Source: an uncultured Methylomarinum sp.
Lineage (GTDB): Bacteria > Pseudomonadota > Gammaproteobacteria > Methylococcales > Methylomonadaceae
Length of the DNA stretch: 52,021 nt
NCBI GenBank assembly: GCA_964472945.1
Contig: CAYYNM010000002.1
Coordinates: forward strand, 1 to 52,021
Direction: 5' to 3'
A model generated the notes under the pieces. The model made no database searches and had not been told where the DNA came from. It saw only the letters and a list, made by a program, of their open reading frames with translations. This document shows, piece by piece, positions 10,169-34,967 of the stretch (positions are counted from its first letter, which is position 1; the number at the start of each line of letters is the position of its first letter). The position numbers were made by a program, and so were the translations under genes.

Positions 10169-10170
10169 AC

Positions 10171-16560: not shown

Positions 16561-16581
16561 TAGCACTAGGTAGAATTGGTA

Positions 16582-17286: not shown

Positions 17287-17303
17287 AATTACAGGTATAG
17301 CAT

Positions 17304-18512: not shown

Positions 18513-19866
18513 TAAATCAAAAAGTTTATTTTACGACTACAATATTGAACAGTTACATTCTTTAATTAAGAGTAAAGAGTTACGTTACCGTGATCTTGTA
18601 GAAGAATGTATTAACAGAACGAAGGAAGTAGACCCTAAATATCACGTCTGGGCATCTTTTGATGAAGATGATTTCCTGAGTCAGGTTGATGACAATATGA
18701 CTCTTACAGGAAGAGATTATGATATGTCAGGTATTCCTGTGGCTGTTAAGGATATATTTAATACAATAACGCTGCCAACGCAGATGGGAAGTCCGTTATG
18801 GAAAGGTTTTACAGCAGGAAATGATGCTCGAGTTGTTCATACCTTAAAAGAGGCCGGTGCACTTATTGCTGGTAAAACTGTCACTGCCGAATTTGCTGTT
18901 CATGCTTTGAATGAAACCTTAAACCCACATGATATTTCACTCACTCCAGGCACATCCTCCAGTGGTTCCGTAGTTTCTATTGCAATGGGTGTTTGTCCAG
19001 TGGCGCTTGGAACTCAAACAGCCGGTTCAATTGTTCGTCCAGCTAGTTTTACGGGTGTCTATGGGTTTAAACCGTCATTTGGACTTGTGCCAAGAACAGG
19101 CATACTCAAAACTACGGATAGTCTTGATTCAGTAGGCTTTTTTACTATCCATTATAAAGATATTTTAAGGGTTTTTGAGGCAGTTAGGGTAAGGGGTAAA
19201 AATTACCCAATCAGTAATGCTGCCCTCTATGACGCGCAGCGACAGAATAAAGATAAATCAAGACCATGGCGAGTTGCATTTTTCAAGACCTGCACCTGGG
19301 GTGACGCAGCGGACTATGCAAAAGAAAATATGGAGCATTATATAAACAAACTTGCAAACCTGAATGATGTAGAAGTAGTAGAAGTAGAGTTGCCAAAAGA
19401 ATTTGAAAGAATTCATGATCTGCATTTGACGATATACAGGAAAGCACTTTCATATTATTTCAGTAAAGAATATAAAACATTTGACAAGATGTCAGACAAA
19501 ATGGTCGATTTGATTGAACAAGGAGTGAAAATATCACCGGCAGAATATTACGATGCGATTCGTGATCAGGATGCTCTTTGTAATTCAATGGATGAAATGA
19601 TGAAAAAATATGATGTGTTAATTTCTCTATCGACTGCTGGTGTTGCACCACCTAGAGAAATTGAAGAGATGCCTGATCCTGCATTGATCTGGAATACACT
19701 GCAATTACCCGTTGTAGCAGTTCCCGGATTTGTCAATGAAAATAATTTGCCTTACGGCTTTCAGGTGTGCAGCAGAAAATACAATGACTACTTGTTGTTA
19801 AATTTCCTCGATTATTTGCGCGAAAATGACATGATTCCGGAAAAGATGAATCCGGTTTTATCTTAA
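18502..19866 (+). CDS. Amidase-signature (AS) family amidase (GatA-like)
   Basis: 454 aa, overlapping the upstream gene by 11 nt. Motifs are 'GIPVAVKDIF' (catalytic Lys), 'GALIAGKTVTAEFA' and 'TPGTSSSGSVVSIAMGVCPVALGTQTAGSIVRPASFTGVYGFKPSFG' (Ser-cisSer block). Confidence 0.85.
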   Translation: MTTNKSKSLFYDYNIEQLHSLIKSKELRYRDLVEECINRTKEVDPKYHVWASFDEDDFLSQVDDNMTLTGRDYDMSGIPVAVKDIFNTITLPTQMGSPLWKGFTAGNDARVVHTLKEAGALIAGKTVTAEFAVHALNETLNPHDISLTPGTSSSGSVVSIAMGVCPVALGTQTAGSIVRPASFTGVYGFKPSFGLVPRTGILKTTDSLDSVGFFTIHYKDILRVFEAVRVRGKNYPISNAALYDAQRQNKDKSRPWRVAFFKTCTWGDAADYAKENMEHYINKLANLNDVEVVEVELPKEFERIHDLHLTIYRKALSYYFSKEYKTFDKMSDKMVDLIEQGVKISPAEYYDAIRDQDALCNSMDEMMKKYDVLISLSTAGVAPPREIEEMPDPALIWNTLQLPVVAVPGFVNENNLPYGFQVCSRKYNDYLLLNFLDYLRENDMIPEKMNPVLS

Positions 19867-19903
19867 TGCTATATAACTTTAGAAATGACAGGGATTATAA
19901 AAT

Positions 19904-20914
19904 ATGAGTTCTGAGTACAGTAAAATTAAGCCAATTCAGCAACTGGATGATGTGCTGTCAACTTTGGATTCTCTATTCGACGAATTCGAAAAAAAGAATC
20001 CTGAAAAAACACAGGTAAGCTGTCCATTCTGTAATGCTGATGAATCAGTTAAAGCTTTTTCATATAAAAATTGTGACTATCGTAAATGTTCTAATTGTGA
20101 ATCTGTTTATTTGTCACCACGAGTCACTGAAGAATGGTTGGGTGAATATTATTCTTTCATGCAGGAACGGTTTGCTTTTGAAATGCCGGAATCAAATCGA
20201 CAGTCTAGAATTGATAACCTGATGAAACCACGTTGGGAGCTTTTATATAACAAATTTAAACCCTTTATTAAAAGTTTGCCTGTGAAGCGTTATATGGAAG
20301 TGGGGCCGGGTGTGGGGTATTTCACTGAAGTGGCACAAATGAACAATTGTGCAGATGAATACATACTAATTGAGCCAGATGTTCATTGTCAGGAACAATT
20401 AAAAAAACTCGGTGGCAACACTAAAATTTATGACTGCATACTTGAGAATGTCGATGCAGCTGAGTGCGGTAAGGTCGATATCATATTTATTAATAGCGTT
20501 ATTGAGCATCCATTTTCAATTAATAACTTTTTTGCCAAGCTAAATGAGTTATTGAGTGATAATGGAATAATCGTGCTTGTTGATATGCACTGCAAGGGTC
20601 TTGATATTGAGGTTCTGAAAGAAAATACGCCAAATGTTAATGTCTATAGTATTTTGCAAATTGCTTCTATTAATGGTATTGAAACAATGTGCAAGAATAA
20701 TGGATTTGAAATGAAGGATGTGTTTTCTATTGGTAAAATGGATATTGATATTATTTATGAGTACGCTAAGAGTCTGGATGATGAACATCCGCTAAAAGGA
20801 TTTGAGAATGTTTTCGGTGGTGCTTTGGTTCGGCAAGAAATCCAGGATGTTTTATCAAAACATTTACTTACCGGTTATAATGGTTATATATTTCAAAAAT
20901 CTAGTAATAGTTAG
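19904..20914 (+). CDS. Class I SAM-dependent methyltransferase with an N-terminal Zn-ribbon
   Basis: 336 aa. 'CPFC...CSNC' is a four-Cys motif. 'YMEVGPGVGYF' is motif I, and 'VDIIFINSVIEHPF' and 'LSDNGIIVLV' are also present. Confidence 0.72.
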   Translation: MSSEYSKIKPIQQLDDVLSTLDSLFDEFEKKNPEKTQVSCPFCNADESVKAFSYKNCDYRKCSNCESVYLSPRVTEEWLGEYYSFMQERFAFEMPESNRQSRIDNLMKPRWELLYNKFKPFIKSLPVKRYMEVGPGVGYFTEVAQMNNCADEYILIEPDVHCQEQLKKLGGNTKIYDCILENVDAAECGKVDIIFINSVIEHPFSINNFFAKLNELLSDNGIIVLVDMHCKGLDIEVLKENTPNVNVYSILQIASINGIETMCKNNGFEMKDVFSIGKMDIDIIYEYAKSLDDEHPLKGFENVFGGALVRQEIQDVLSKHLLTGYNGYIFQKSSNS

Positions 20915-21071: not shown

Positions 21072-22136
21072 ATGAAAAATCATGAATTATATATGATCTC
21101 AGAGGATGAGAATATTCGGGATGCTATAAAGAAAATGGATGTTGAGCAACTGGATTTGTTGGTTGTTGTAAAACAAGACGCAACTGTAACTGGTGTTTTT
21201 ACTAGTGGTGATTTTAGAAATGCAGTACTAAAGGGAATAGATATAAATAACAAAGTTTCTACTATCGCAAACAAAAACTTTTTAAGTCTTGGTGAAAATT
21301 ACTCATTTGATGAGGCTTCAGAATTATTTGAAGATGAATACGTGGTTGTAGTTCCAGTCCTTCAAAATGATAAGCTAATTGATGTGGTGCATCGGAAAAA
21401 ATTCCATGGAAGTGATGGTGGCAACTTTAAACTTCTGGAAAAAAAACTGGCAACTGTCATCATGGCTGGTGGTAAAGGTACTCGGCTTGACCCTTTTACT
21501 AGAATTTTGCCAAAACCCCTTTTGCCACTCGGCGATGATCCTGTAATTAAAGTTATCATGGACGAATTTATATCGCATGGTTTAGAAAATTTTTTTATTA
21601 CCTTGAAAGATAAAGCAAAAATGATTAAAGCATATTTCCATGACCATGACATGGGATATAAAATCAACTATATTGATGAAGAAAAACCGTTGGGGACAGC
21701 TGGTTCTTTGAAGTTGATGGAAGATGTACTAGATGATGTATTTTTTGTCTCTAACTGCGATATTATTATTAAAAGCGATTATGCGGAGATTTTGTCTTTT
21801 CATAATAAAGGTGAATATTCGATCACTTTGGTAGGGGCAATGAAGCAATATTCTGTTCCCTACGGTGTTTGTGACATAGAAAAAGACGGAAAGTTAAAAT
21901 CATTTATAGAAAAGCCGGAATTTGATTATCTTGTTAATACAGGTTTGTATGTGATTGCCCCTTCAGTGATTAAACTGATTCCAGAAGATACGTATTTTGA
22001 TATGACTGACCTTTTAAAAGCCCTGATGGATAAGGGAGAGAGAATTGGTGTCTACCCTGTTTCTGAAAAATCATGGGTTGATGTTGGTCAATGGGAAGAA
22101 TTTAATAATGCATTGAATGATATTCGATTTATTTAA
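21072..22136 (+). CDS. ptmE: CBS-domain sugar-1-phosphate nucleotidyltransferase (PtmE-like, possibly a GlcN-1-P guanylyltransferase)
   Basis: 354 aa. An N-terminal CBS pair ('IRDAIKKMDVEQLDLLVVV...') is followed by 'VIMAGGKGTRLDPFTRILPKPLLPLG' and 'EEKPLGTAGSL'. Confidence 0.78.
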   Translation: MKNHELYMISEDENIRDAIKKMDVEQLDLLVVVKQDATVTGVFTSGDFRNAVLKGIDINNKVSTIANKNFLSLGENYSFDEASELFEDEYVVVVPVLQNDKLIDVVHRKKFHGSDGGNFKLLEKKLATVIMAGGKGTRLDPFTRILPKPLLPLGDDPVIKVIMDEFISHGLENFFITLKDKAKMIKAYFHDHDMGYKINYIDEEKPLGTAGSLKLMEDVLDDVFFVSNCDIIIKSDYAEILSFHNKGEYSITLVGAMKQYSVPYGVCDIEKDGKLKSFIEKPEFDYLVNTGLYVIAPSVIKLIPEDTYFDMTDLLKALMDKGERIGVYPVSEKSWVDVGQWEEFNNALNDIRFI

Positions 22137-22352
22137 TTGGCATTATCAAATACTAATAGTTAAAATAAATGTTTCTCCCTTTTTTATGACGATATATTCT
22201 GAATAATATTCCTTTTGGAGTTCAGTTATTTTCATGAGAATATCAGGGCTATTCTCTTATTGATTTTCCTGATTCTTTATCTAAAGAAGGTTTCATTCCA
22301 AGACAATCATGTAACCCTATAATAAGCGAGATTAACCTTTAGCGAGTATATT

Positions 22353-23855
22353 ATGAAGAAGATATTAGTAGAGCGTTTTCCTTCTATAGCAATTGACATA
22401 TTTCAACAACAACTAAAAAACTTAATAGATATTAAGATTGTTGTATATAATGGCGAAAAAATTGCTGTAAATCAAAATATTGAACTTTTAAATTCTTTAT
22501 CAATTTCAAAAGGTATTGGTATCGATTCTTGTCCTTGGTCTATAGGCTATATTGAGCAGAGATATTTTAGTGCGCATGAAGGTGTTTTTTTAAGTATTCT
22601 TTCTCGCTATGATATATATAAAAAAGCATTTACAACAGAAGAGATGTTAGATCACTACTATCGTCTAGTTAACTTCTGGATAAATAAAACAAAAAATATA
22701 GACGCTGTCTTTTCACTTGATATACCGCATGTACCTAGTTCTTTTGCACTATACTTGGTGACAAAGTTTTTAAAAATTCCATTTATCTATATTGATTCTG
22801 CTCTTGTTTATAATAAATTACAGTATTTAGGATGTTCTTTTAAACATAGAATGCTTTTAGCTGAAAATGAGCAGTTAACAGCAAAAGAATTTTTGACTGC
22901 TCATTATGATTTTTATACGGAGTATAATTCAGCTGATCAAGGCGTTGTTTCTAAATATGTCACATACTTAGAAAGTAGAGTAGAACGGTTATGGTGGAGT
23001 ATGTTAGTTCAAGATATTAATAGTAGTTTACCAATTTCCATTAAATCTATATTTAATGGAAATATAAAGTTAAGGGGTTTATACACGACAGAGCTAGGTT
23101 GGAAGATATCACGCAGAAGGTGGGATGACCCAAGATCTGGATTTTTACGCCCCTTTCTTTTTTTTGCAAAGTTACAAGAAAGAATAAAAATTTTATTTTC
23201 AAAAATAAGATATAGAAGGCTCTGTACAAACCATAAAAAACTCAATTCCTATATACTTTTTGCAGCAACAACGGAACCAGAATGTGCAACTTTACCTACT
23301 GCATTAGGTGGAAGGTCTATTGCAATAGCATTAAGAAGAATTGTTGAGGCGTTACCAGATGGTTGTACAGTCCTTTATAAAGGGCACCCAGGCCAGTTTG
23401 AACAGCAAGTATTATTTACAACAGAATGGAAAAGTAAATATTATTATGAGGACTTACAAAAGATAGGTAAAATAATCTTTGTAAGGGATGATATACCTAC
23501 GAAAGACTTGATTGAAGGCTCTATTGGTGTTGCTACAATTAATGGAACAATTGGGCTAGAGGCTTTGATGGGAGGAAGGCGTTGTATTACATTTGCTCCG
23601 CAGTGGTATGATGATTTTGATGGCTTACACTGTGTAAAATCTGGCAGTGATATTTCAGATGCTGTAAAATTAATGCTAGATAAAGTTTCTCCTAATCCGC
23701 AACCTAATCAGATTAAGTTTTCAAAACATTTTGTTGATATGGACGGTTATAATAATGCTACTTATACTAAAGAGGATTTTGAGAAAATATGTGCTGGTAT
23801 GTGGGGAGCATATAATGATTTTTTAGAAATTGATGATAGAAAATGGGAAGTATGA
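22353..23855 (+). CDS. Large orphan protein; candidate CMP-ulosonic-acid-dependent glycosyltransferase (Capsule_synth / sialyltransferase-like C-terminal half)
   Basis: 500 aa. The C-terminal 'ILFAATTEPE...LYKGHPGQ...IGVATINGTIGLEALMGGRRCITF' recalls the HP motif and the T(V/I)NST.G.EAL block of KpsC/KpsS/LpsZ-type enzymes. This is a recollection, not an alignment. Confidence 0.4.
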   Translation: MKKILVERFPSIAIDIFQQQLKNLIDIKIVVYNGEKIAVNQNIELLNSLSISKGIGIDSCPWSIGYIEQRYFSAHEGVFLSILSRYDIYKKAFTTEEMLDHYYRLVNFWINKTKNIDAVFSLDIPHVPSSFALYLVTKFLKIPFIYIDSALVYNKLQYLGCSFKHRMLLAENEQLTAKEFLTAHYDFYTEYNSADQGVVSKYVTYLESRVERLWWSMLVQDINSSLPISIKSIFNGNIKLRGLYTTELGWKISRRRWDDPRSGFLRPFLFFAKLQERIKILFSKIRYRRLCTNHKKLNSYILFAATTEPECATLPTALGGRSIAIALRRIVEALPDGCTVLYKGHPGQFEQQVLFTTEWKSKYYYEDLQKIGKIIFVRDDIPTKDLIEGSIGVATINGTIGLEALMGGRRCITFAPQWYDDFDGLHCVKSGSDISDAVKLMLDKVSPNPQPNQIKFSKHFVDMDGYNNATYTKEDFEKICAGMWGAYNDFLEIDDRKWEV

Positions 23856-24343
23856 TTATTGTCTAAAGAATTACTGGATAGAAAAAAAGACGCATGAATT
23901 TCGTTGATGATTGTAGAAGTAATGTTTTTTGTAATGATCGAAAAGTTTTTTTCAGAAGTAGTTGCAATTAACTTAAAAGTTCCCTGAATTGTTGGTTTAT
24001 TCTTATTTAGAATAAATTTTATTGGCGTTTTCTTGAAGTCTCTTTTGAATAGAATGGGCAAATTATCTAGGACAGTCCCTAGTATTAATATCAAATTTTG
24101 AAACGAGTGTAATAGGCAGTCTATCTTGTACTAATTTCTTTAATTTATACCTTTGTCAAATTTAAGCTCCTATTTATATAATTGGTCGATAATAGTAATG
24201 TGATGGAAAATTTCATAATAATTTAATACTTTTGTATTGTGATTTAGAATTATAAAACGTTATTTTAAATTCTATAAAACTATTGTTATTAAATTAATAT
24301 AATACTTCACATCTCATACATTTGTTTACATCTGGAGTAGGCA

Positions 24344-24955
24344 TTGAGTAATAAAATTGAATCTACGTTTCACGAATCCATAGCAGTTAAGCAGAAGTGC
24401 ATTGACATGGGTTTTAATGTTTTAGAAAAAATGGGAAATGAAATTACTGAGCTTTTACAAGTTGGCGGTAAAATCATGTTATGCGGCAATGGTGGTTCAG
24501 CCGCTGATGCACAACACCTAGCTGCTGAAATGCTTGTTCGATTACGTCCAAAGAATAACCGTGAAGGCATTCCCGCAATTGCTTTGGCACAGGATACTTC
24601 TACGATTACTGCATGCGGTAATGATTTTGGTTACGATGTGCTTTTTGAGCGCATGGTGACCACATTAGGAAATGAAGGGGATTGTCTCATTGCAATTACC
24701 ACATCAGGTAATTCTATAAATGTCATCAAAGCTATGCAAGCTGCAAGACATATAGGTATTAAAGTTTATGGTTTCCTGGGAGCAAGGGGTGGCGAAGCCT
24801 TACAGTATTGTGATGATGCTTTTGTTGTTCCAAGTGATAACACGGGTAGGATTCAGGAGTCACATATCACCGCTGGCCATGCCCTAATGGAATGCATCGA
24901 AGATAGTTTAATAGAAAATGGCTATCTTCATCTTCAGAGTCATAACTCGAAATGA
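24344..24955 (+). CDS. SIS-domain sugar-phosphate isomerase (GmhA-like)
   Basis: 203 aa. The TTG start has GGAG 7 nt upstream. Motifs are 'MLCGNGGSAADAQHLAAEM', 'ITTSGNS' and 'QESHITAGH'. Confidence 0.8.
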   Translation: MSNKIESTFHESIAVKQKCIDMGFNVLEKMGNEITELLQVGGKIMLCGNGGSAADAQHLAAEMLVRLRPKNNREGIPAIALAQDTSTITACGNDFGYDVLFERMVTTLGNEGDCLIAITTSGNSINVIKAMQAARHIGIKVYGFLGARGGEALQYCDDAFVVPSDNTGRIQESHITAGHALMECIEDSLIENGYLHLQSHNSK

Positions 24956-25467
24956 ATAATATGCAAAGTACAGTAATAAGCATTGATGATATTGATGTGA
25001 TTTTTTTTGATTTTGATGGTGTCTTAACAAATAATCTTGTGCATTTAGATCAAGATGGTAAAGAATGGGTAAGCTGTAGTCGAGCAGACGGATTAGCTTT
25101 CGACGTATTACGCAAACTAAATAAACCCGTATATATTCTTTCGACAGAAAAAAACTCAGTAGTAACAGCTAGAGCTAACAAGCTCAAAATACCTGCAATA
25201 CAAGGTGTTGAGAATAAGGCTGAAAAAATTAAAGTCTTGGTGAGTGAGATGAAGTTTGACCTTACTAAGGTGCTTTATGTTGGTAACGATTTGAATGACT
25301 TTCAGGCGATGGAGCTGTGCGGTTATACCGCTTGTCCATCTGATAGTCATGAAAAAATAAAAGAAATTTCATCTTTTGTGCTCGGTACTATGGGCGGAAA
25401 AGGTGTTGTTCGTGAATTACTGGAAAATGTTCTTAAGTTGAATTTTATTCAAATACTTTATCCATAA
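24952..25467 (+). CDS. HAD-IIIA (KdsC/YrbI-type) ulosonate-phosphate phosphatase
   Basis: 171 aa with an ATGA overlap. 'VIFFDFDGVLTNN' is the DxDG nucleophile motif. 'RADGLAFDVL', 'GNDLNDFQAM' and 'GGKGVVRELLE' are collinear with KdsC. Confidence 0.8.
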   Translation: MNNMQSTVISIDDIDVIFFDFDGVLTNNLVHLDQDGKEWVSCSRADGLAFDVLRKLNKPVYILSTEKNSVVTARANKLKIPAIQGVENKAEKIKVLVSEMKFDLTKVLYVGNDLNDFQAMELCGYTACPSDSHEKIKEISSFVLGTMGGKGVVRELLENVLKLNFIQILYP

Positions 25468-25488
25468 TTAAATTTAGAGAGGAAAGCT

Positions 25489-26334
25489 ATGTCTATATTT
25501 ATAGTTGCAGAAATTGGAATTAACCATAATGGTGATATGTCAATCTGTAAAGAATTAATTGATGTTGCATCAGACACGGGTTGTGATGCTGTTAAATTTC
25601 AAAAAAGAGATATCGACCAGGTATACACTCAAGATTTTCTTGATTCATCAAGAGAAAGTCCATGGGGAACAACTCAACGTGAACAGAAAGCGGGACTTGA
25701 GTTTACAGCTGATCAATATAATGAGATAGCTGACTACTGTAAAAGTAAAAAACTTGAATGGTTTGCTTCTGCTTGGGATACTAATAGCCAGAAATTTTTA
25801 CAACAGTTCAATTGTAAATTTAATAAAGTCGCTTCAGCTATGATTGTTCATGAAGAATTACTGAAGATGATTGCGCAAGAAAAGAAACACACTTTTATTT
25901 CAACGGGTATGACCACATACGAAGAAATCCAAACTGCTGTTGATATTTTTAGAGCTGCAGACTGTCCATTTGAATTAATGCATACAGTTTCTACTTATCC
26001 TATGAAGGATGAAGATGCCAATCTCAATATGATTAATACGCTAAGAGATAAATATCAGTGTGATGTTGGTTACAGTGGGCATGAGGTCGGTCTTGCAGTT
26101 TCTTATGCGGCTTCCGCCTTGGGAATTACATCACTTGAACGTCATATCACTGTTAATCGTGCAATGTATGGTTCTGATCAGTCAGCTTCTGTCGAGCCTG
26201 CAGGTATTCGCCAACTAGTGGGAGCCGTTAGAAAAATCGAAAAAGCAATGGGAGATGGTGTTAAAAAAGTGATTGATGCAGAAACACCCATTGCTCAAAA
26301 ATTACGTGAGCACCTAGCTTGGCAAGGTAGTTAA
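25489..26334 (+). CDS. NeuB-family PEP-condensing ulosonic acid synthase lacking the SAF domain
   Basis: 281 aa. Motifs are 'IVAEIGINHNGDMSICKELIDVASDTGCDAVKFQKR', 'GYSGHEVG' and 'LERHIT'. The protein ends right after the TIM barrel, with no C-terminal SAF/AFP-like domain, unlike the paralogue at 8442. Confidence 0.8.
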   Translation: MSIFIVAEIGINHNGDMSICKELIDVASDTGCDAVKFQKRDIDQVYTQDFLDSSRESPWGTTQREQKAGLEFTADQYNEIADYCKSKKLEWFASAWDTNSQKFLQQFNCKFNKVASAMIVHEELLKMIAQEKKHTFISTGMTTYEEIQTAVDIFRAADCPFELMHTVSTYPMKDEDANLNMINTLRDKYQCDVGYSGHEVGLAVSYAASALGITSLERHITVNRAMYGSDQSASVEPAGIRQLVGAVRKIEKAMGDGVKKVIDAETPIAQKLREHLAWQGS

Positions 26335-26359
26335 TCGTTCATTCTACAAGGTAAGCGAA

Positions 26360-27196
26360 GTGAAAAATATATTTGGTGTAATGCAAGGTAGGCTTGTTCC
26401 GAAATACCAAGGAAGATACCAAGCCCACCCCATAGGTAACTGGCAGAGAGAGTTTGAAGTTGCACAAGAAATTGGACTCGATTGTATCGAGTTTATTCTC
26501 GATTATAATGATGCTAATGAAAATCCTCTTTTGAAAGAAGGAGGAGTTAAAGAAATACAGTCAGTGATAGCGAAAACGGATGTTACAGTTAAAACAATTT
26601 GTGCAGATTATTTTATGGAAGCACCATTACATTCTGAAGATATTATAGAAGGAAAAAAGAGTCAGAAAATTATGGAGAGTTTATTGAATAGCGCAGCACA
26701 ACTCGGTGTTTCAGACGTGGTTGTACCCTGTGTAGATCAGTCAACACTTCATAATCAAGAGGCTGCTGATCGTTTCGTAAAGATGATGGCACCGGTTGTA
26801 CTGATTGCTGAACAACATGGCATCAACCTTTCTTTAGAAACAGACTTAGCACCAGCCCCTTTTGCTACTCTACTACAACGATTTAATTCTGATCGCGTTA
26901 CTGTTAATTACGATATTGGTAATAGTGCTGCACTGGGATTTGACCCGATTGAAGAGTTGAATTCATACGGCAAAAAAATTACAGATATTCACATTAAAGA
27001 CCGAGTTCTCGGTGGAGGGCCTGTGGAACTAGGTCAGGGTGATGCTGACTTTAATTCGTTCTTTTTAAAGCTCAAAGAGTTTGATTATACCGGCCCATTT
27101 ATAATGCAAGCTTATAGAGACGATGAAGGTGTTGCTATTTTTAAAAAACAATTAAAGTGGATCAAAAAACAAATGGAAGCATATAGTGCGAGTTAG
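26360..27196 (+). CDS. Xylose-isomerase-like TIM-barrel sugar(-phosphate) isomerase/epimerase
   Basis: 278 aa with a GTG start. Motifs are 'GLDCIEFILD', 'INLSLETD', 'VNYDIGNSAALGFDP', 'DIHIKDR' and 'GQGDADFNSFF', the pattern of the AP-endonuclease-2/UlaE-like fold. Confidence 0.7.
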   Translation: MKNIFGVMQGRLVPKYQGRYQAHPIGNWQREFEVAQEIGLDCIEFILDYNDANENPLLKEGGVKEIQSVIAKTDVTVKTICADYFMEAPLHSEDIIEGKKSQKIMESLLNSAAQLGVSDVVVPCVDQSTLHNQEAADRFVKMMAPVVLIAEQHGINLSLETDLAPAPFATLLQRFNSDRVTVNYDIGNSAALGFDPIEELNSYGKKITDIHIKDRVLGGGPVELGQGDADFNSFFLKLKEFDYTGPFIMQAYRDDEGVAIFKKQLKWIKKQMEAYSAS

Positions 27197-27884
27197 CTCA
27201 ATTATTCTGGCAAGAGGAGGTTCTAAAGGGATACCAAAAAAGAATCTTATAAACTTTTGTGGTAAACCACTTTTAGCATGGACAATCTTACAATCACTAG
27301 CAGCAAATAATGTAAGCGACACTTGGGTTAGCTCGGATAGTCAGGAAATGTTAGACGTAGCAGAGCAATATGGTGCTAAGTCTATTAAACGGCCAGATGA
27401 AATATCAGGGGATACTGAATCTTCAGAATCTGCATGGTTGCATGCAATAGATTTTATTGAAAGTCAACCAGACTCTGCTGCAATTGATTATGTGCTGGCT
27501 CCGCAAGTAACATCGCCATTAAGAGACGCATCTGATTTTTCTAATGCCATAAGTCAGTTTATAACAGAAAAATCTGACACACTTCTCTCTGTAGCAGAAA
27601 TTGAAGACTTTTTTATTTGGAAAAAAGATGAAAATGGAAATCCAGAGTCAGTTAATTATGATTATAAAAACCGAAAACTTCGTCAACAAATAGAAAATAG
27701 ATATTTAGAAAACGGTTCATTTTACATCTTTCCCCCTCAATTTCTGAAAGATAACAATAATAGATTGGGTGGAAAAATATCGCTGTATGAAATGGAGCGA
27801 TATAAAATGTTTCAGATTGATAATATAGAAGATGTTGAACTGTCTTCAGTTATTATGAAAGGATATGGTCTAGACAAAATATGA
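27186..27884 (+). CDS. Second acylneuraminate/ulosonate cytidylyltransferase (CMP-sugar synthetase)
   Basis: 232 aa with a GTG start overlapping the upstream gene. Motifs are 'IILARGGSKGIPKKNL', 'QVTSPLR' and 'NGSFYIF'. Confidence 0.8.
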   Translation: MRVSSIILARGGSKGIPKKNLINFCGKPLLAWTILQSLAANNVSDTWVSSDSQEMLDVAEQYGAKSIKRPDEISGDTESSESAWLHAIDFIESQPDSAAIDYVLAPQVTSPLRDASDFSNAISQFITEKSDTLLSVAEIEDFFIWKKDENGNPESVNYDYKNRKLRQQIENRYLENGSFYIFPPQFLKDNNNRLGGKISLYEMERYKMFQIDNIEDVELSSVIMKGYGLDKI

Positions 27885-28630
27885 GTAACTATATTGATAC
27901 TCTTTTTTCCTTAAAAGGAAAAACTGCAATTATAACGGGGGGATCTCGTGGGATTGGCGCTGGAATTGCACTTGGTTTTTTAAAAGCAGGCGCGAATATT
28001 ATTTGTGTGTCGAGATCAGAAAAAACCGAATTGAATGAACTCCAAGAATTTTATAAACAATGTGATATCACTGATAAGAAGCAATTCGATGCTATATGTA
28101 AGCAAGCTTGTGAATCATATGGAGGAATTGATATCCTTGTTAATGCAGCAGGCATTAGTTTGCCTTCAGATGATTCCTATTCAAAATTTGAACGATTCAC
28201 TAAAACCTTATCCGTTAATTTAATCTCAACCTATCAATGTTGTGAAATAGCATCTGAATTAATGCTAAATGGTGGAGCAATTATTAATATTACAAGTATT
28301 GGATCTATTCTTGGATTTCCTGATAATCCAGGTTATGTAGCAAGCAAAGGAGGCATTAGAGCTTTAACTAAAGCACTTGCTGAGGATTTGTCTGAAAATA
28401 ACATACGAGTCAATAATATCGCGCCTGGTTACACTAAAACTGATATGACTCAAAAAAGTTTTAGTGACTTAGAATTAAATAAGCAAAGAGTAGATAGAAT
28501 GATGATAAAGCGTTGGGGAAGTGTTGAGGATATAGCTGCTGCTGCAATTTTCTTAGCATCAAATGCATCATCATATATCACAGGTACAGACTTAATAGTT
28601 GATGGTGGCTGGACCGCAAAAGGTATCTAA
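27881..28630 (+). CDS. Short-chain dehydrogenase/reductase (classical SDR)
   Basis: 249 aa with an ATGA overlap. Motifs are 'AIITGGSRGIGAGIA' (TGxxxGxG), 'NAAG' and 'YVASKGG' (YxxxK). Confidence 0.85.
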   Translation: MSNYIDTLFSLKGKTAIITGGSRGIGAGIALGFLKAGANIICVSRSEKTELNELQEFYKQCDITDKKQFDAICKQACESYGGIDILVNAAGISLPSDDSYSKFERFTKTLSVNLISTYQCCEIASELMLNGGAIINITSIGSILGFPDNPGYVASKGGIRALTKALAEDLSENNIRVNNIAPGYTKTDMTQKSFSDLELNKQRVDRMMIKRWGSVEDIAAAAIFLASNASSYITGTDLIVDGGWTAKGI

Positions 28631-28631
28631 T

Positions 28632-29405
28632 GTGAATTTACAGTTGTCTGGGAAAAAGGTTCTTGTTACTGGCTCGTCTCAAGGTATAGGTGCCGCTATC
28701 GCCATTGGTTTTCTTAATGAAGGAGCTGATGTTGTTATTGTCTCAAGAGGCAAAGAAAAACTGTCCGCTTTGGCAAGTAAACTGAAAACTAAATATGGTA
28801 AAAGTCGAATACTTCATGCTACTTGTGATTGTGCTGATGCAGAGTCTCTTGAAGGATTAAGAAATTTTATCATTGCTAAGTGGGACAGGTTAGATATTGT
28901 TATCGCTAATGTAGGCGATGGAAAAAGTGTTCCTGAGGCTATTCCAAGTGATGAAGAATGGGTAAGAACATGGAATAGTAATTTTGAATCTGCACTTCAA
29001 ACATCACGAGTCTTTCTTCCTGAACTAAAAGTATCAAAAGGCAATTTACTTTTTATATCTTCAATAACCGCGCTGGAGGCATTTGGTGCACCGGTTGATT
29101 ACTCAACTGCTAAAACAGCGGTTGTTGCCTTTGCAAAAAATATAGCGAGAAAATTAGCACAAGAAGTTCGGGTTAATGTTTTAGCTCCGGGCAATGTTAA
29201 TTTTCCCGGAAGTTCTTGGGATAAAAAAATTAAGTCTGATCCTGAACGGATTAAAATATTAATAGAAAATACAGTTCCAATGAATCGCTTTGGAACACCT
29301 GAAGAAATAGCAGATGCTGCCATCTTTTTGTGTTCAGAAAAGGCAAATTTCATTACTGGTTCAGTGTTGGTGATTGATGGTGGTCAAACAGTAGGTATTT
29401 TGTAA
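28632..29405 (+). CDS. Short-chain dehydrogenase/reductase (classical SDR)
   Basis: GTG 28632 gives 'MNLQLSGKKVLVTGSSQGIGAAIA'; the track ORF extends to ATG 28599, overlapping the upstream gene. 'YSTAKTA' is the YxxxK motif. Confidence 0.82.
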   Translation: MNLQLSGKKVLVTGSSQGIGAAIAIGFLNEGADVVIVSRGKEKLSALASKLKTKYGKSRILHATCDCADAESLEGLRNFIIAKWDRLDIVIANVGDGKSVPEAIPSDEEWVRTWNSNFESALQTSRVFLPELKVSKGNLLFISSITALEAFGAPVDYSTAKTAVVAFAKNIARKLAQEVRVNVLAPGNVNFPGSSWDKKIKSDPERIKILIENTVPMNRFGTPEEIADAAIFLCSEKANFITGSVLVIDGGQTVGIL

Positions 29406-29407
29406 AT

Positions 29408-30244
29408 ATGAAAAATAATTTAGATACATTATTCAACTTAGAAGGCCAGGTTATCGTCATCACTGGTGCTGCTGGTCTACTCGGAAAACAACACGCTGAA
29501 GCGGTTGCAGCTTATGGTGGAACCCCAATTTTATTGGATCTTTCCCAAGAAGCTGTTGATACATTAGCAAAGCAGCTGAATGAGAAATATGATGTAAAGT
29601 CATCAGGTTTTGCGGTAGACATTACCGATGAAAAGCAAATAGAAGAGAATTCCAGTTTATTGATAAAACAATACGGCAAGATCGATGGACTTGTTAATAA
29701 TGCTGCAAACAACCCTAAAGTAGAGGATAGCTCAGAGAAAAATTTTTCGAGGCTTGAGAACTTTCCAATTGATGTTTGGAATCAAGATATTGCGGTGGGA
29801 TTGACTGGATCATTTCTTTGTTCGAAACACTATGGTTATCAGATCTCTCAAAATTCCAATGGTGGGAGTATCGTAAATATTTCCTCTGATCTTGGTTTAA
29901 TGGCGCCAGACCAAAGACTCTATGCTAAGCAAGGATTAGCTGAAGAGCTACAGCCCGTTAAACCAATAACTTACTCGATTGTTAAAACGGGAATGATAGG
30001 TTTGACAAGGTATTTAGCTACTTATTGGGCCGAAAAGAATGTTCGTTGCAATGCAATATGCCCAGGTGGAGTTGAAAATGGACAACCTGAAGATTTTTTA
30101 AAAGAGGTGTCTTCAAGAATCCCTATGAATAGGTTGGCGAATAGTAATGAATATCAAGGAACGCTACTTTGGATGTTGAGCGAAGCCTCTAGCTATTTAA
30201 ATGGAGCAATTGTGCCAGTAGAAGGTGGACGAACCGTTTGGTAA
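29408..30244 (+). CDS. Short-chain dehydrogenase/reductase (longer SDR variant)
   Basis: 278 aa. Motifs are 'VIVITGAAGLLGKQHA', 'NNAA' and 'YSIVKTG' (YxxxK). Confidence 0.82.
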   Translation: MKNNLDTLFNLEGQVIVITGAAGLLGKQHAEAVAAYGGTPILLDLSQEAVDTLAKQLNEKYDVKSSGFAVDITDEKQIEENSSLLIKQYGKIDGLVNNAANNPKVEDSSEKNFSRLENFPIDVWNQDIAVGLTGSFLCSKHYGYQISQNSNGGSIVNISSDLGLMAPDQRLYAKQGLAEELQPVKPITYSIVKTGMIGLTRYLATYWAEKNVRCNAICPGGVENGQPEDFLKEVSSRIPMNRLANSNEYQGTLLWMLSEASSYLNGAIVPVEGGRTVW

Positions 30245-30355
30245 AATAAATTCATTTTATCATTATGAATTTAGACAACCATGTAGAGTTATGCTTATGA
30301 AACAATTAATAACTATTCATTAGTTTTGATGTAAGTAAAAGGAAATAGTAACTAT

Positions 30356-31708
30356 ATGTCAAAAGAGTTGTTGGATAGAGAAAAAAATTACATGGATTTT
30401 GTAGAGCGCTGTTCTGATAACGCATTTCCAGATAGCTTATCTAATTTGTTGTATTATGAGAAAAGTTTATTTTTAAGAATTTGTGCTGGTCAGAGGTTAC
30501 TAAAAGGTTTATTTTTTAATGGGCACAAGGAGAGACTTTTAAATATTTCACAGTATGGTCCACAGAGGTTTTTTTTAGAATTAATAGTTATTCACTTACA
30601 CATTCCTTTGTTTTTAGCGCGAGTATTGTCAAAAATTAAATTTAGTATCACCTTATTCCGCTTATCATTGCGTTGGACAAGTAAAGAGTCTGCTAGTGAT
30701 TTATCCAATTATGAAAATCTAACCTTTCTAATGTCAGATTTTGCTAGATTAACCAATAGATTTACTGATGTCATTAGAGATGCTAAAAACCTTTGTGAGA
30801 TTCATTCTGACTGTGAAGTAAGATTGATTGCTAATGGTGATCATAGTTATTTCTTTTTACCACGGTTGTCACTTAATCAGTTCTTGAGCGTATTGCGCGC
30901 ACCATCATGGAAAATGACGTATTTAATCCGCGCTTATAGACAGCACAACTTTATTGAGAAATATAATATTGATAATGCTTATATTGTAGATGGTGACTCT
31001 CCTAGCAGTGTAAGTTCTGCTTATGCAGCGAATTTATCTGATACTACCAGCACTTGTATTCAATGGGGAACGATGGCTATGGGTATTAAACCTGGATACA
31101 AACTTTTTCCGTTTAACTATTTTTTATGTACAGGACAATATTATGTTGATTTACTAAGTCCTTTTTCAGATAGAACTAAATTCCTGGTAAGTGAATTTAT
31201 AAATAATGCCAAATTTGATGAAAAAATTGATTTTAATAGATGCGGCTCAGTATTGTTCGTATTGAATGAATCAGAAACAGCAATTTCAAAAGAGGAATCT
31301 GATTTTTTAATAAATTTATGTGTCGAAACAAAGAAGCGATTTCCAGATTTAAATGTTACCGCTAGACCTCATCCAGATATGTTTTTAAATGAGGTGGCTG
31401 TCAGTTTATTTAAAGAGTGTGGGGTGGTTATCGATAACGCCACTAATCCAAATATTGCATTAAGTGAAAATAAATTTTTGGTTGGGCATGTATCAAGCCT
31501 TATGATTGAATCTATAGAATATGATTGTTTCCCTATATTTATGGAGATAGGTATAAAACAGCTACATCCAGATTTGGTGGCTTTATCTGCTGCAATGAAG
31601 TTTGAAACAAAAAAAGAGTGGTTTCTATTATTAGATGACCTATTAAAAAACTATTGTAACTATACAGCGCAAACATCACTTAAGATGTCTTTAAATAATA
31701 GAGAGTAA
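30356..31708 (+). CDS. Large orphan protein; second candidate CMP-ulosonic-acid transferase
   Basis: 450 aa with no clear TM segment. The C-terminal half has 'VLFVLNESE', 'VTARPHPDMF' (HP motif) and 'LVGHVSSLMIESIEYDCFPIF', the same order of blocks as in ORF 22353. No family is assigned. Confidence 0.35.
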   Translation: MSKELLDREKNYMDFVERCSDNAFPDSLSNLLYYEKSLFLRICAGQRLLKGLFFNGHKERLLNISQYGPQRFFLELIVIHLHIPLFLARVLSKIKFSITLFRLSLRWTSKESASDLSNYENLTFLMSDFARLTNRFTDVIRDAKNLCEIHSDCEVRLIANGDHSYFFLPRLSLNQFLSVLRAPSWKMTYLIRAYRQHNFIEKYNIDNAYIVDGDSPSSVSSAYAANLSDTTSTCIQWGTMAMGIKPGYKLFPFNYFLCTGQYYVDLLSPFSDRTKFLVSEFINNAKFDEKIDFNRCGSVLFVLNESETAISKEESDFLINLCVETKKRFPDLNVTARPHPDMFLNEVAVSLFKECGVVIDNATNPNIALSENKFLVGHVSSLMIESIEYDCFPIFMEIGIKQLHPDLVALSAAMKFETKKEWFLLLDDLLKNYCNYTAQTSLKMSLNNRE

Positions 31709-31720
31709 TTTGTATGGTAT
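31688..31720. repeat. Direct repeat copy A (33 nt; 30/33 identical to copy B)
   Basis: TCTTTAAATAATAGAGAGTAATTTGTATGGTAT. It contains the last 6 codons plus the stop of ORF 30356-31708 and a dead 'ATG GTA TAA'. Confidence 0.9.
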
Positions 31721-32301
31721 AAAAAAGTTGGAGATGATGTATTGATATCTTCTAATATTGCTTTCACTTTATTATGGGAAATATATCTCTACCTTTATTA
31801 GAAGTTTTTTATTTGAAGTTTTATTATGTGTGGGTAGGCTAGAAATTTAGCATGGTGATAGAACGTCTGGAATGTGATTGCTTGTTAGCTTTCATGATAT
31901 CGGATTAAATTATTTATAACTTGAATTAATTAAGTTGTTAGCAGTAAAGTTTTTTAAAATGAAATAAATGGTTTGATATTGTTAATAATATCAATTAATA
32001 ATTACGGATTTCCTTCAAAATTAAAGTTGGCACAGGTTTGCTATGAATAATACAAGGTCATAGAGTATTAATAAAACTCTAATTTTTAGTTAGGTATTAT
32101 ATCAATAATAATCTCATTTCTTCGAATTTATGTTAACAATAATTATTAATAAAAAATAATTCAATTTACAATGAGCGCGCTAGAATATAAAGATATCTAT
32201 TTTTATTAGATATGATTGATTCCTGATGAATTATATTAAATCTGATTTTCTATCAGCTTATGATAAATATATTGTAATAATAAGGGTAAGTTTTTTATAA
32301 T

Positions 32302-33855
32302 ATGCTTTTTAATTCATATGAGTTCATTTTTCTTTTTCTACCCTTAACGCTACTTGTTTTTTATTTAATAGGCGCGCAAGGATATCATCGAATTGCAATT
32401 GCTTGGTTGGTTGGTGCATCACTCTTCTTTTATAGCTGGTGGAATCCTGCATATCTTGGGCTGATGCTATTCTCAATAATCTTTAACTATAGTATTGGTG
32501 TAGCACTTGGAATTAACCAAAATAGCCCACAGAAAAAATTAATACTGTTTTTGGGCGTTGCAACAAACTTAAGCTTACTTGGATATTTTAAATATGCCAA
32601 TTTTTTTGTAGAAAATATCAACTCATTGAATAGTAATGATTTTAATTTCAATGAAATTATCCTTCCTCTTGCTATTAGCTTCTTCACCTTTCAGCAAATA
32701 GCTTATCTTGTTGACACATACCGAGGAGAGACTAAGGAGTATAATTTTCTCCACTATTGCCTCTTTGTTACATTTTTCCCACAATTAATCGCGGGACCTA
32801 TTGTTCATCATAAGGAGATGTTGCCACAGTTTGCAAAAGATATTGTGTATAGAATGCAAGCTAAAAATTTTTCAATAGGTTTAACTATCTTAGCTATAGG
32901 GCTTTTTAAAAAAGTTGTTCTTGCAGATGGTATATCAATTTATGCAATCCCCGTATTTGATCTTGCTGAAGCAGGTGGGGCGTTAACAATTTTTGAGGCT
33001 TGGGGCGGGGCATTAGCATATAGTTTCCAACTCTATTTTGATTTTTCTGGTTACTCTGATATGGCAATAGGATTAGCTAGAATGTTTGGAATACGCCTTC
33101 CACAAAACTTTAATTCACCTTATAAGGCGACTTCTATTATTGATTTTTGGGGGCGTTGGCATATTACATTGTCTAGATTTCTGCGTGACTACGTATATAT
33201 TCCTCTTGGCGGAAATAGAAAAGGTGAATTTCGTCGCCTTACAAATATATTGTTTACAATGCTGCTGGGTGGTTTATGGCATGGCGCTGGGTGGACTTTT
33301 GTTCTGTGGGGAGGACTACATGGTACTTATCTTGTTATTAATCATATTTGGCGAAAAATATTTAGTTCAAAGATAAAATCTAAGTCTGGTATATTTATTG
33401 CGTGGATATTAACCATGTTTGCTATAGTCATATCTTGGGTTCCTTTTAGGGCAGCAAGTATAGAGGGAGCGAATAATATGTTAATAGCAATGGTTGGGGG
33501 GAATGGCATTTCTTTGCCAGCACGACTTACGGGGAGTATTGGCAATCTAGAACATTGGTTGGTTGAATACGGGGTTACTTATACTAGTGTTTTTTATAAC
33601 GGAGTATTCGACCTGCAAGGAGTAGTATGGATTGTAGTCTTACTTTTAATTTCTGTTTCTTTGCCAAACATACAACAAATTATGTTTCATACTAACTCTG
33701 ATACTGAATGTTTTAAAGGTGAGGTTTCAAAATTACGACATCACTGGATTAAGTGGCAACCATCAAGAGCATGGTCCATATTTACAGCAGTAGTTTTCCT
33801 GATTTCAATTATAAATTTATCAAAAGCGAGTGAGTTTTTATATTTTCAATTTTAA
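32302..33855 (+). CDS. MBOAT-family membrane O-acyltransferase (AlgI/DltB-like)
   Basis: 517 aa and polytopic. It has the 'MLFNSYEFIFLFLPLTLLVFYL' N-terminus, 'FFTFQQIAYLVD', 'DFSGYSDMAIGLARMFG' and 'GGLWHGAGWTF' (conserved His). Confidence 0.9.
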   Translation: MLFNSYEFIFLFLPLTLLVFYLIGAQGYHRIAIAWLVGASLFFYSWWNPAYLGLMLFSIIFNYSIGVALGINQNSPQKKLILFLGVATNLSLLGYFKYANFFVENINSLNSNDFNFNEIILPLAISFFTFQQIAYLVDTYRGETKEYNFLHYCLFVTFFPQLIAGPIVHHKEMLPQFAKDIVYRMQAKNFSIGLTILAIGLFKKVVLADGISIYAIPVFDLAEAGGALTIFEAWGGALAYSFQLYFDFSGYSDMAIGLARMFGIRLPQNFNSPYKATSIIDFWGRWHITLSRFLRDYVYIPLGGNRKGEFRRLTNILFTMLLGGLWHGAGWTFVLWGGLHGTYLVINHIWRKIFSSKIKSKSGIFIAWILTMFAIVISWVPFRAASIEGANNMLIAMVGGNGISLPARLTGSIGNLEHWLVEYGVTYTSVFYNGVFDLQGVVWIVVLLLISVSLPNIQQIMFHTNSDTECFKGEVSKLRHHWIKWQPSRAWSIFTAVVFLISIINLSKASEFLYFQF

Positions 33856-33894
33856 AATTGAAGAAAATAAATATTTATTTAAAATCTAGCAATT

Positions 33895-34944
33895 ATGAAA
33901 TTTTCGACATACTTAGTAAGCACGATCTCATTAGTTTTTCTTGGGCTTATGATTGTATCAATAACTAATTATACCGTTGATCCAGCTGGTATCTACCATA
34001 AGTATAAGTTTTCAGAAAAGCTTGTTTTGAAATTAGCGTCATCTAAGAATGGATTGATATTTCGTGGTGCCTGGAACAATAGAGATGTTGTCTTAGCCCT
34101 GGCAAAATACTCTGCCGAAACTTCTTGTTATGTAATTGGTAGTAGTCATGTGGGTCATATTGGATCTGCTAGGCAGAAAAAATCACTCACTCATAGTTGC
34201 CCAGATCTGATAAACCTATCAGTGGCAGGAGCTTCATTAGAAGATTATATTGCTCTATCAAGCGCTATCTTAGAAAATAAAAACCAGCCTAAAACTATTG
34301 TTTTTGGAATTGACCCCTGGAGTTTAAATTTTAATCGAGACAAAAGGTGGCTTAGATATAAGGATGAATATGAGTCTTTATCACAAACAATAAGTAATAC
34401 TAACAATAAATATTATATAGAAAACTCATTAATAAAAAATCTAATTAATGCCGAATATTTTATTCGCTCTATTAATAATATTAAATCAACAGATAAAACG
34501 ATTACTGAGGCCCCTGATTTTGATCAAATAGTTGGTTATAACGAACCAGTACGATTACCCGATGGTAGTTCTGTGTACTCTAAAAAGACTATCCAAAAGA
34601 GAAAAGGTCAAGTCGTGACAGGACTCCACCGTTATAAAATTGTTGAAAATGTTTGGTATAGTGAAAATGCTGTTAAGACATTTAATCTTCTCCTGAAGTA
34701 CTTACAACAAAGGTATAAAGTAATATTAGTTTTGGCACCTTACCACCCCGCTATTTGGAAGCATGAAGATCAGCCTATTGTTACTGCAATGAAGGTTATA
34801 GAAGATAAAGTACATGAGATAGCCAAATCTTTAAGCATAAAAGTTCTTGGTTCATATGATCCTGAAATAGTTGGTTGTACAGCAGGAGATTTTATTGATG
34901 ATATGCATTCATCAGCCGATTGTATGATGAAATTAGAAAGATGA
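33895..34944 (+). CDS. Membrane-anchored periplasmic SGNH/DltD-like partner of the MBOAT
   Basis: 349 aa. An N-terminal signal anchor (LVSTISLVFLGLMIVSI) is followed by 'VIGSSHVG' (block I Ser candidate) and the C-terminal 'IDDMHSS' (DxxH block V candidate). It lies immediately downstream of the MBOAT. Confidence 0.55.
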   Translation: MKFSTYLVSTISLVFLGLMIVSITNYTVDPAGIYHKYKFSEKLVLKLASSKNGLIFRGAWNNRDVVLALAKYSAETSCYVIGSSHVGHIGSARQKKSLTHSCPDLINLSVAGASLEDYIALSSAILENKNQPKTIVFGIDPWSLNFNRDKRWLRYKDEYESLSQTISNTNNKYYIENSLIKNLINAEYFIRSINNIKSTDKTITEAPDFDQIVGYNEPVRLPDGSSVYSKKTIQKRKGQVVTGLHRYKIVENVWYSENAVKTFNLLLKYLQQRYKVILVLAPYHPAIWKHEDQPIVTAMKVIEDKVHEIAKSLSIKVLGSYDPEIVGCTAGDFIDDMHSSADCMMKLER

Positions 34945-34967
34945 TAATGTGGTATAACAATAATCAA

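Follow-up and report, generated by a model that had tools for sequence, protein, structure and literature searches.

The subject of this study is a block of eight tightly packed open reading frames (ORFs) at 24344-30244 (+) of a DNA stretch from an uncultured Methylomarinum sp. (contig CAYYNM010000002.1); the whole stretch, 52,021 nucleotides long, is referred to below as the window. The block joins known and new elements: its core is of the type that produces CMP-Kdn, the cytidine monophosphate (CMP) conjugate of 3-deoxy-D-glycero-D-galacto-non-2-ulosonic acid (Kdn), and to this core are added an isomerase, an epimerase and short-chain dehydrogenases/reductases (SDRs), with a product that is not yet predictable. 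We judge the chances about even that the eight genes form a portable cassette for the synthesis and CMP activation of a non-amino 3-deoxy-ulosonic acid by a phosphate route, apart from the legionaminic-acid pathway encoded further upstream in the window.

The phosphate route to sialic-acid-like sugars is usually viewed as belonging to animals, the exceptions being some algae and a single gut Bacteroides. Here, a synthase of the NANS type stands at the centre of a horizontally spread cassette with thousands of close relatives in metagenomes. It is surrounded by changing tailoring modules, comprising an epimerase with SDRs, aminotransferases, radical S-adenosylmethionine (radical-SAM) enzymes and thiamine pyrophosphate (TPP) enzymes, and the resulting sugars are chemically uncharacterised. 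Since sialic-acid-like surface sugars commonly influence phage adsorption, grazing and immune recognition, there is value in identifying those made by the cassette. Its compact eight-gene form in the window lends itself to heterologous expression.

The condensing synthase

The synthase of the block (25489..26334, +; 281 aa), predicted to condense phosphoenolpyruvate (PEP) with a sugar, matches only the NeuB domain of Pfam. As an earlier note on this DNA had remarked, it lacks the SAF domain that its paralogue in the window (8400/8442-9497) carries in addition to NeuB, and it stays below the TIGR03569 NeuB equivalog (246.5 bits against a cut-off of 399.65). In Neisseria meningitidis NeuB (NmNeuB), the SAF domain supplies the essential Arg314. 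This role is also described in a study in which SAF-less NeuB proteins appear as an environmental group without functional study (PMC8208679).

The references used for comparison were human NANS (checked as an exact match to SIAS_HUMAN), the Kdn-9-phosphate (Kdn-9-P) synthase of Prymnesium parvum (sequence from the supplement of PMC6200933), the Leptospira enzyme 6ncs, NmNeuB, PseI, SpsE and the NeuB+SAF paralogue of the window. The block synthase is 36.6% identical to the catalytic domain of NANS and 34.7% identical to the P. parvum enzyme, against 28-33% for the other five references; the corresponding bit scores are 184 and 149 versus 100-157. A neighbour-joining tree, a phylogeny of the kind suggested in the earlier note, places the cassette synthases, NANS and the P. 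parvum enzyme in one clade (bootstrap 94/100), with the NeuB, PseI, SpsE and Leptospira references and the paralogue of the window outside it. The clade shares the motif KFQK(R/S), a loop insertion S/P-(W/Y)-G-x-T and the sequence (Y/F)SGH at the metal-binding histidine, which reads SDH in the other enzymes compared. These signatures, which were derived in this analysis from few characterised sequences, are present in the window enzyme, in all 12 aligned cassette homologues (one with WSGH), in NANS and in the P. parvum enzyme, and are missing from NmNeuB, PseI, SpsE, 6ncs and the NeuB+SAF paralogue. The closest solved relative is the SAF-less Leptospira enzyme, whose specificity is unassigned.

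By its sequence, the synthase belongs to the NANS/Kdn-9-P synthase clade, and this membership together with the shared motifs supports a phosphorylated aldose as its substrate. The characterised members of the clade all use hexose-6-phosphates; the SAF-less P. parvum enzyme converts only mannose-6-phosphate (Man-6-P) among seven substrates tested and does not use arabinose-5-phosphate (Ara-5-P) (PMC6200933).

Phosphatase, cytidylyltransferase and the CMP-Kdn pathway

The HAD phosphatase (24952..25467, +; 171 aa; Pfam Hydrolase_3) is of the C0 type and resembles the Kdn-9-P phosphatases, of which NF058599 is its top NCBIfam match. Its closest relatives in the PDB are 3mmz from Streptomyces avermitilis and then BT1713 of Bacteroides thetaiotaomicron (3e81; 35% identity), both ahead of all KdsC entries. 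At the positions of Glu56 and Lys67 in BT1713, the window enzyme also has Glu and Lys, whereas Escherichia coli KdsC (sequence checked against 2r8e) has Arg and Thr. The 38 cassette HADs are uniform in this respect, with Glu in 38/38 at the first position and Lys or Arg in 38/38 at the second. Daughtry and co-workers reportedly found in 2013 that these two positions set specificity. Scored as a KdsC, the window enzyme reaches 79.7 bits against a cut-off of 208, and it has Glu instead of the carboxylate-binding Arg. Synthesis of 3-deoxy-D-manno-octulosonate (Kdo) was considered and rejected: the synthase is not of the KdsA type, the phosphatase is devoid of the KdsC arginine and Ara-5-P is no substrate of the P. 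parvum relative.

The cytidylyltransferase (27186..27884, +; 232 aa; Pfam CTP_transf_3), a predicted CMP-ulosonic acid synthetase, is 32% identical to the CMP-Kdn synthetase of P. parvum and scores 124 bits against it, compared with 83 bits for the other cytidylyltransferase of the window (10171). Cytidylyltransferase and HAD are fused into proteins of about 390-414 aa, encoded upstream of the synthase, in five of the related loci presented below (L042, L045, L047, L054 and L080).

The clade of the synthase, the BT1713-type residues at two positions of the HAD and the affinity of the cytidylyltransferase all support the correspondence of the core to the known CMP-Kdn pathway. In B. thetaiotaomicron (BT1714 synthase, BT1713 phosphatase, BT1715 synthetase) and in P. 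parvum, the same three steps are found as predicted for the block, namely condensation of an aldose-6-phosphate with PEP, dephosphorylation and CMP activation. The P. parvum synthase shares with that of the block its clade and its want of a SAF domain, and the CMP-Kdn synthetase of this organism is the nearest to the cytidylyltransferase of the block. The block differs from this pathway by an identity of only about 32-35% to the enzymes compared (BT1713 and those of P. parvum), and by having in addition three SDRs, a putative TIM-barrel epimerase and an isomerase that resembles GmhA. The animal sialic acid route (NANS, NANP, CMAS) likewise passes through a phosphorylated intermediate, and the substrate-loop and SGH motifs of NANS are found in the block synthase. 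Animal NANS, however, carries a C-terminal antifreeze-like (SAF) domain that the block synthase lacks, and the block has no means of making N-acetylmannosamine-6-phosphate (ManNAc-6-P). NANP is of a different HAD subtype from the phosphatase of the block.

The earlier note had described the block as a second, self-contained ulosonic-acid route that appears to run through a phosphorylated intermediate, and the synthase clade and motifs as well as the BT1713-type residues of the HAD agree with this description. Its further statement that the block maps to no known pathway has to be abandoned, as the core matches the characterised CMP-Kdn pathway (BT1713-BT1715 and P. parvum; PMC6200933).

Distribution and diversity of related loci

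Searching metagenomes with the synthase returned at least 8000 matches at E <= 1e-20, the best 120 of which are 80-93% identical, and synthase and TIM-barrel protein are also found at 92-93% identity on other metagenome contigs. A scan of one genome per species yielded 467 relatives, the best 80 of which define loci L001-L080. These 80 synthases are 64-82% identical to that of the window and come from many phyla, their genomes being attributed to Gammaproteobacteria, Pelagibacter, Prochlorococcus, SAR116, Thioglobus, Nitrospinaceae, Elusimicrobia, Bacillota, Actinomycetota and others. One of the carriers, the cultured Pelagibacter sp. HIMB1495, corresponds to L010. Such high conservation of the synthase across phyla argues for horizontal spread of the cassette. 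E. coli genomes contain no DNA match to the block. The literature searched yielded no description of the cassette as a whole, and a paper on the O-chains of Pelagibacterales makes no mention of these sugars.

The co-occurrence of the block genes, a survey of which had also been proposed in the earlier note, can be followed across the 80 loci: the synthase recurs with varying subsets of the same gene families at its flanks, and the association is therefore beyond chance. In the 44 loci with enough flanking DNA, to which the SIS, TIM and SDR counts given below also refer, the HAD is found 30 times, the cytidylyltransferase 32 times, the SIS isomerase 23 times and the TIM-barrel protein 27 times.

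Other relatives carry different modules in the same place. One set combines a different cytidylyltransferase with a methyltransferase, a VOC-fold protein and an aminotransferase of class III; aminotransferases of class IV, TPP enzymes and radical-SAM enzymes of the B12 and SPASM types occur as well. Loci with such other tailoring sets are L001 (9954-12410), L033, L051, L066, L071, L078 and L079; in one of the sets, an acetolactate-synthase-like TPP enzyme lies directly 3' of the synthase. These sets may yield amino, C-methylated or chain-extended ulosonic acids, and the cassette of the window is one compact version of a diversifying family.

A more distant locus, L084, lies on the Azospirillum thermophilum plasmid NZ_CP029359 (10004-19182). 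There, the synthase is 55% identical and precedes a HAD of 361 aa whose N-terminal half is unassigned; an SDR-TIM-SDR-SDR set is located across an IS21 insertion, the whole adjoining a legionaminic-acid (Leg) cluster.

The GmhA-like isomerase

The first gene of the block (24344..24955, +) encodes a single-domain SIS protein of 203 aa (Pfam SIS_2), predicted to interconvert ketose and aldose phosphates. Its best PDB matches are GmhA enzymes, with 1tk9 at 153.6 bits, and it misses every NCBIfam GmhA equivalog cut-off (186 versus 276, 170 versus 209 and 136 versus 265). In an alignment with 1tk9, the GmhA motifs H-x3-E, GNDFG, TSGNS and Q-x7-H are kept, and we take the residues concerned to be catalytic, metal-binding and phosphate-binding. 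The protein is, judging by these matches, a GmhA paralogue. Like GmhA and Campylobacter jejuni PtmF, it consists of one SIS domain, some 200 aa long, that bears GmhA-type motifs; it differs from GmhA by its scores below the equivalog cut-offs and by its place in an ulosonic-acid cassette. PtmF, which is also GmhA-like, is reported to act on fructose-6-phosphate (Fru-6-P).

The SIS protein would supply the aldose phosphate to the synthase, either Man-6-P from Fru-6-P or D-glycero-D-manno-heptose-7-phosphate from sedoheptulose-7-phosphate (Sed-7-P). Genes for the later steps of heptose synthesis (HldE, GmhB) were not seen in the surveyed loci. In the loci devoid of SIS, a scan for regulators, aminotransferases, TPP enzymes and radical-SAM enzymes revealed no mannose-6-phosphate isomerase in its stead; such a replacement would have favoured a nine-carbon product.

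The TIM-barrel protein and the SDRs

The gene at 26360..27196 (+) encodes a xylose-isomerase-like TIM barrel of 278 aa (Pfam AP_endonuc_2), a putative metal-dependent keto-sugar epimerase. With its AlphaFold2 model (pLDDT 84), Foldseek retrieved UlaE (TM-score 0.78-0.83), the 3-keto-glucoside 4-epimerase YcjR and tagatose/psicose 3-epimerases as top matches, and the NCBIfam UlaE models score 76-83 bits against cut-offs of 200-317. Of the Glu-Asp-His-Glu metal site of such epimerases, E160, D185 and H211 are invariant in the family, and the fourth position is mostly Gln.

Three classical SDRs, all matching Pfam adh_short, close the block on the forward strand. The nearest named families of SDR1 (27881..28630, +; 249 aa) are dehydrogenases of sugars and sugar acids, among them glucose 1-dehydrogenase and KduD, with all NCBIfam matches under their cut-offs; it lies directly 3' of a window-type cytidylyltransferase in L008, L016, L020, L026, L068 and L069. 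SDR2 (28602..29405, +) counts 267 aa from the ATG at 28602. SDR3 (29408..30244, +; 278 aa) is distantly PtmA-like, scoring 108.6 bits for PtmA (cut-off 350) and 169 bits for PRK09186 (cut-off 255).

The TIM-barrel protein is accompanied by SDR3 in 27 of 27 loci (Fisher p = 4e-11) and by SDR2 in 21 of them, and SDR2 never occurs without it; in 17/44 loci the synthase is found without the TIM module. From this co-occurrence, the keto-sugar epimerase fold and the invariant metal ligands, we infer that the TIM-barrel protein, SDR2 and SDR3 form an oxidise-epimerise-reduce unit similar to YcjS/R/Q. In the E. coli YcjS/YcjR/YcjQ system, two dehydrogenases and a xylose-isomerase-like TIM-barrel epimerase invert a stereocentre through a keto intermediate, as proposed for the block. 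YcjR is among the top structural matches of the TIM-barrel protein, yet the two are only 16% identical. YcjS and YcjQ belong to other dehydrogenase families than the SDRs, and their substrates are neutral glucosides in catabolism. The suggestion, already made in the earlier note, that an epimerase and redox enzymes alter the stereochemistry of the product fits both the fold and the strict linkage of TIM and SDR3. The module may act on the free acid, the CMP-sugar or a sugar phosphate.

The synthase tree does not split according to the presence of TIM or SIS, identities within and between the groups being 71-75%, and the parsimony changes for TIM and SIS amount to 9 and 10, compared with shuffled means of 13 and 14. 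The condensation substrate is thus probably the same in all loci.

A further lead comes from the KL1 and KL2 capsule loci of Serratia marcescens, which may tie the NeuB and TIM families to Kdn. Their neuA-neuB region encodes a NeuB joined in one protein to a TIM domain of the COG1082 sugar-phosphate isomerase/epimerase type. Production of sialic acid and of the capsule depends on neuB, and Kdn is present in the polysaccharide along with a little Neu5Ac (N-acetylneuraminic acid) (PMC9000132). The Serratia protein, a possible counterpart, is a 746-aa fusion with no dedicated SDRs reported, whereas NeuB and TIM are encoded by adjacent genes in the block. Searches of plasmid proteins with the synthase and the TIM-barrel protein returned no NeuB-TIM fusion.

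Proposed pathway and alternative explanations

In the pathway that we propose, the SIS protein would isomerise a ketose phosphate to an aldose phosphate of manno configuration, the most likely pair being Fru-6-P and Man-6-P. The SAF-less synthase, of the NANS type by family, would condense this compound with PEP into a terminally phosphorylated ulosonate, most likely Kdn-9-P, from which the HAD, a member of the Kdn-9-P phosphatase family, would strip the phosphate, and the cytidylyltransferase would then form the CMP-sugar. In the optional TIM/SDR2/SDR3 module, one SDR may oxidise a hydroxyl to a ketone, the TIM-barrel protein epimerise the adjacent carbon and the other SDR reduce the ketone, giving a stereoisomer of Kdn, and SDR1 may contribute one more redox or epimerisation reaction. 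The resulting CMP-sugar would pass to a transferase encoded at the flank of the block, for which the KpsC/KpsS-like protein at 22353 is a candidate.

Several observations weigh against this scheme. The synthase is only about 35% identical to characterised enzymes, and the HAD, at 107.1 bits, is under the NF058599 equivalog cut-off of 180. Because the SIS protein keeps GmhA-type motifs, a heptose-7-phosphate substrate and a ten-carbon product are possible. The fourth metal ligand of the TIM-barrel protein is Gln in 36 of 42 sequences, and not Glu, so it may not share the chemistry of UlaE. That the synthase stays unchanged would fit just as well if the TIM-barrel protein and the SDRs formed an upstream supply route to the same substrate. 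Finally, the Serratia TIM domain, a possible counterpart of that of the block, seems to work without dedicated SDRs, which the oxidise-epimerise-reduce idea accommodates poorly.

Alternatives to the formation of a tailored Kdn-like acid have to be considered. It is unlikely, though credible, that the SIS protein is a true Sed-7-P isomerase and that the synthase makes a 3-deoxy-dec-2-ulosonate 10-phosphate, then dephosphorylated, tailored and CMP-activated. The nearest relatives of SIS are indeed GmhA enzymes, with the H-x3-E pair, TSGNS and Q-x7-H kept; a dedicated isomerase would be needless for a compound as common as Man-6-P, and yet SIS is present in 23/44 loci; and mass spectrometry of Magnetospirillum has given hints of CMP-ulosonic acids with ten carbons, to which no genes are assigned (bioRxiv 10.64898/2026.04.20.719630). 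However, the Magnetospirillum compounds are di-N-acetylated diamino sugars, unlike any product of the block, SIS is under every GmhA equivalog cut-off, and all characterised synthases of the clade use hexose-6-phosphates (PMC6200933). The particular sequence in which the GmhA-like enzyme makes D-glycero-D-manno-heptose-7-phosphate and the synthase a ten-carbon 3-deoxy-dec-2-ulosonic acid, epimerised and CMP-activated afterwards, appears decidedly unlikely to us. If true, this acid would constitute a new class of surface sugar and, given how widely the synthase is distributed, some of the commonest bacteria of the sea would carry it. A small but real probability also attaches to an action of the TIM-barrel protein, SDR2 and SDR3 before condensation, on a sugar phosphate, for instance in a redox-assisted 2-epimerisation of glucose-6-phosphate to Man-6-P; the product would then be plain CMP-Kdn, or an epimer fixed at the hexose stage. 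The relatives nearest to the TIM-barrel protein by sequence and fold, UlaE and SgbU, act on phosphorylated ketoses, the synthase is unchanged with or without TIM, and the Serratia NeuB-TIM fusion accompanies plain Kdn. Such a supply route would nevertheless do over again what SIS does wherever TIM and SIS occur together (17 loci), and related loci interleave the module with aminotransferase, VOC and methyltransferase genes, which looks like late tailoring.

Two known routes to amino sugars are less probable still. SIS and one SDR might be the equivalents of PtmF and PtmA, feeding the legionaminic-acid pathway by conversion of Fru-6-P to glucosamine-6-phosphate together with the PtmE-like protein encoded at 21072. 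LegB and LegC are above their cut-offs in the window, the CBS and nucleotidyltransferase (NTP-transferase) gene is two genes upstream of SIS, SDR3 matches PtmA weakly, and the Azospirillum plasmid has the cassette beside Leg genes. We nonetheless hold this to be very unlikely: SIS lies directly upstream of the HAD or synthase gene in most SIS-bearing loci and shows no statistical association with SDR3 (p = 0.21), among the 80 genome loci just one (L034) has a PtmE-like gene close by, as does the Azospirillum locus L084, and the score of SDR3 is far from the PtmA cut-off (108.6 versus 350 bits). There is scarcely any likelihood of the animal-type route from ManNAc-6-P through Neu5Ac-9-phosphate and Neu5Ac to CMP-Neu5Ac, even though the synthase clusters with human NANS and the Serratia strains with the NeuB-TIM fusion also contain a little Neu5Ac. 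By Pfam, the block has no N-acetylmannosamine kinase, N-acetyltransferase or 2-epimerase of the GNE/NanE type, and the sole 2-epimerase of the window (43024) has a gene of the UDP-ManNAc dehydrogenase type as its partner.

Organisation of the block

The position of the block, its strand and all the domain assignments given in the earlier note are correct according to Pfam. The note counted nine genes; the ORF list contains eight, as does the note's own enumeration. Its statement that enzymes of the Leg/Pse type are missing stands, since Pfam detects no dehydratase, aminotransferase or 2-epimerase domain in the block. The expected motifs can be read in all eight proteins: the two histidines of the synthase, DxD in the HAD, RGGSKG-x3-KN in the cytidylyltransferase, and YxxxK with a glycine-rich motif in each of SDR1-3.

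The successive intergenic gaps are -4, 21, 25, -11, -4, -29 and 2 bp. The SIS gene has a TTG start preceded by GGAG, and the start of SDR1 overlaps the cytidylyltransferase stop by 4 bp. SDR2 opens with TTG-ATG-ATG at 28599; the gene call on an identical contig begins one codon later (267 aa), and this start at 28602 produces the 29-bp overlap with SDR1. Upstream of the SIS gene, a 489-bp gap holds the top promoter-like site of the scanned region 21900-32400, a candidate sigma-70 promoter at 24153..24182 (+; TTGTCA-18-TATAAT, 11/12 matches). It is suggestive only, because the total number of such sites in the region is not above the shuffled expectation.

Two larger genes flank the block. Upstream, a 500-aa protein (22353..23855, +) bears a KpsC/KpsS-like Capsule_synth domain (PF05159; 33.4 bits against a cut-off of 20) and is possibly a transferase for the CMP-ulosonic acid, a candidacy suggested by this domain. 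Downstream, a 450-aa protein (30356..31708, +) has no family match in Pfam or NCBIfam. The notion that these two proteins are relatives was rejected, as they resemble neither each other nor the LIC12162 family.

The surface-polysaccharide locus

The gene setting identifies the block as the second ulosonic-acid module of what may be a single, very large, RfaH-controlled surface-polysaccharide operon. The window begins with Wzz and a true RfaH (within 1853-2518; TIGR01955, 163 bits against a cut-off of 144.5), followed at 2511-2518 by an exact ops element, GGCGGTAG, just ahead of the first biosynthetic gene. All ORFs of at least 120 aa in the window are on the forward strand, save one nested ORF, and since this applies to every later ORF of that size, the locus of about 50 kb may be one RfaH-antiterminated operon. 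An ATP-binding cassette (ABC) exporter follows the ops element; it is of the type in which transmembrane and nucleotide-binding domains are fused (3567-5369). Fused transporters of the same family, encoded by ORFs of about 597 aa, were also observed near the cassette in 20 related loci.

The first ulosonic-acid pathway (5425-14096) comprises LegB and LegC above their cut-offs, a NeuD-type acetyltransferase, the NeuB+SAF synthase and a cytidylyltransferase, and is by these assignments of the legionaminic-acid type. A PtmE-like CBS-nucleotidyltransferase (21072-22136) is set apart from the other legionaminic-acid genes, two genes upstream of SIS. A second DegT aminotransferase and an oxidoreductase of the GFO/IDH/MocA family are likewise encoded in the region of the first pathway; a hydrolysing 2-epimerase could not be clearly recognised in it, the genes at 7543-8445 and 13122-14096 being without confident family.

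The genes between the two pathways (15559-20914), for a sulfotransferase, a formyltransferase-like protein, a 402-aa protein of no known kind, an amidase and a methyltransferase, suggest that the glycan bears many decorations. An MBOAT gene, glycosyltransferases, WecB/WecC-like genes and a WecA-like initiating transferase are found 3' of the block. The MBOAT (AlgI-like) acyltransferase is followed by proteins of 349 aa and 391 aa without family match, and this group (32302-36169) is possibly an O-acylation system.

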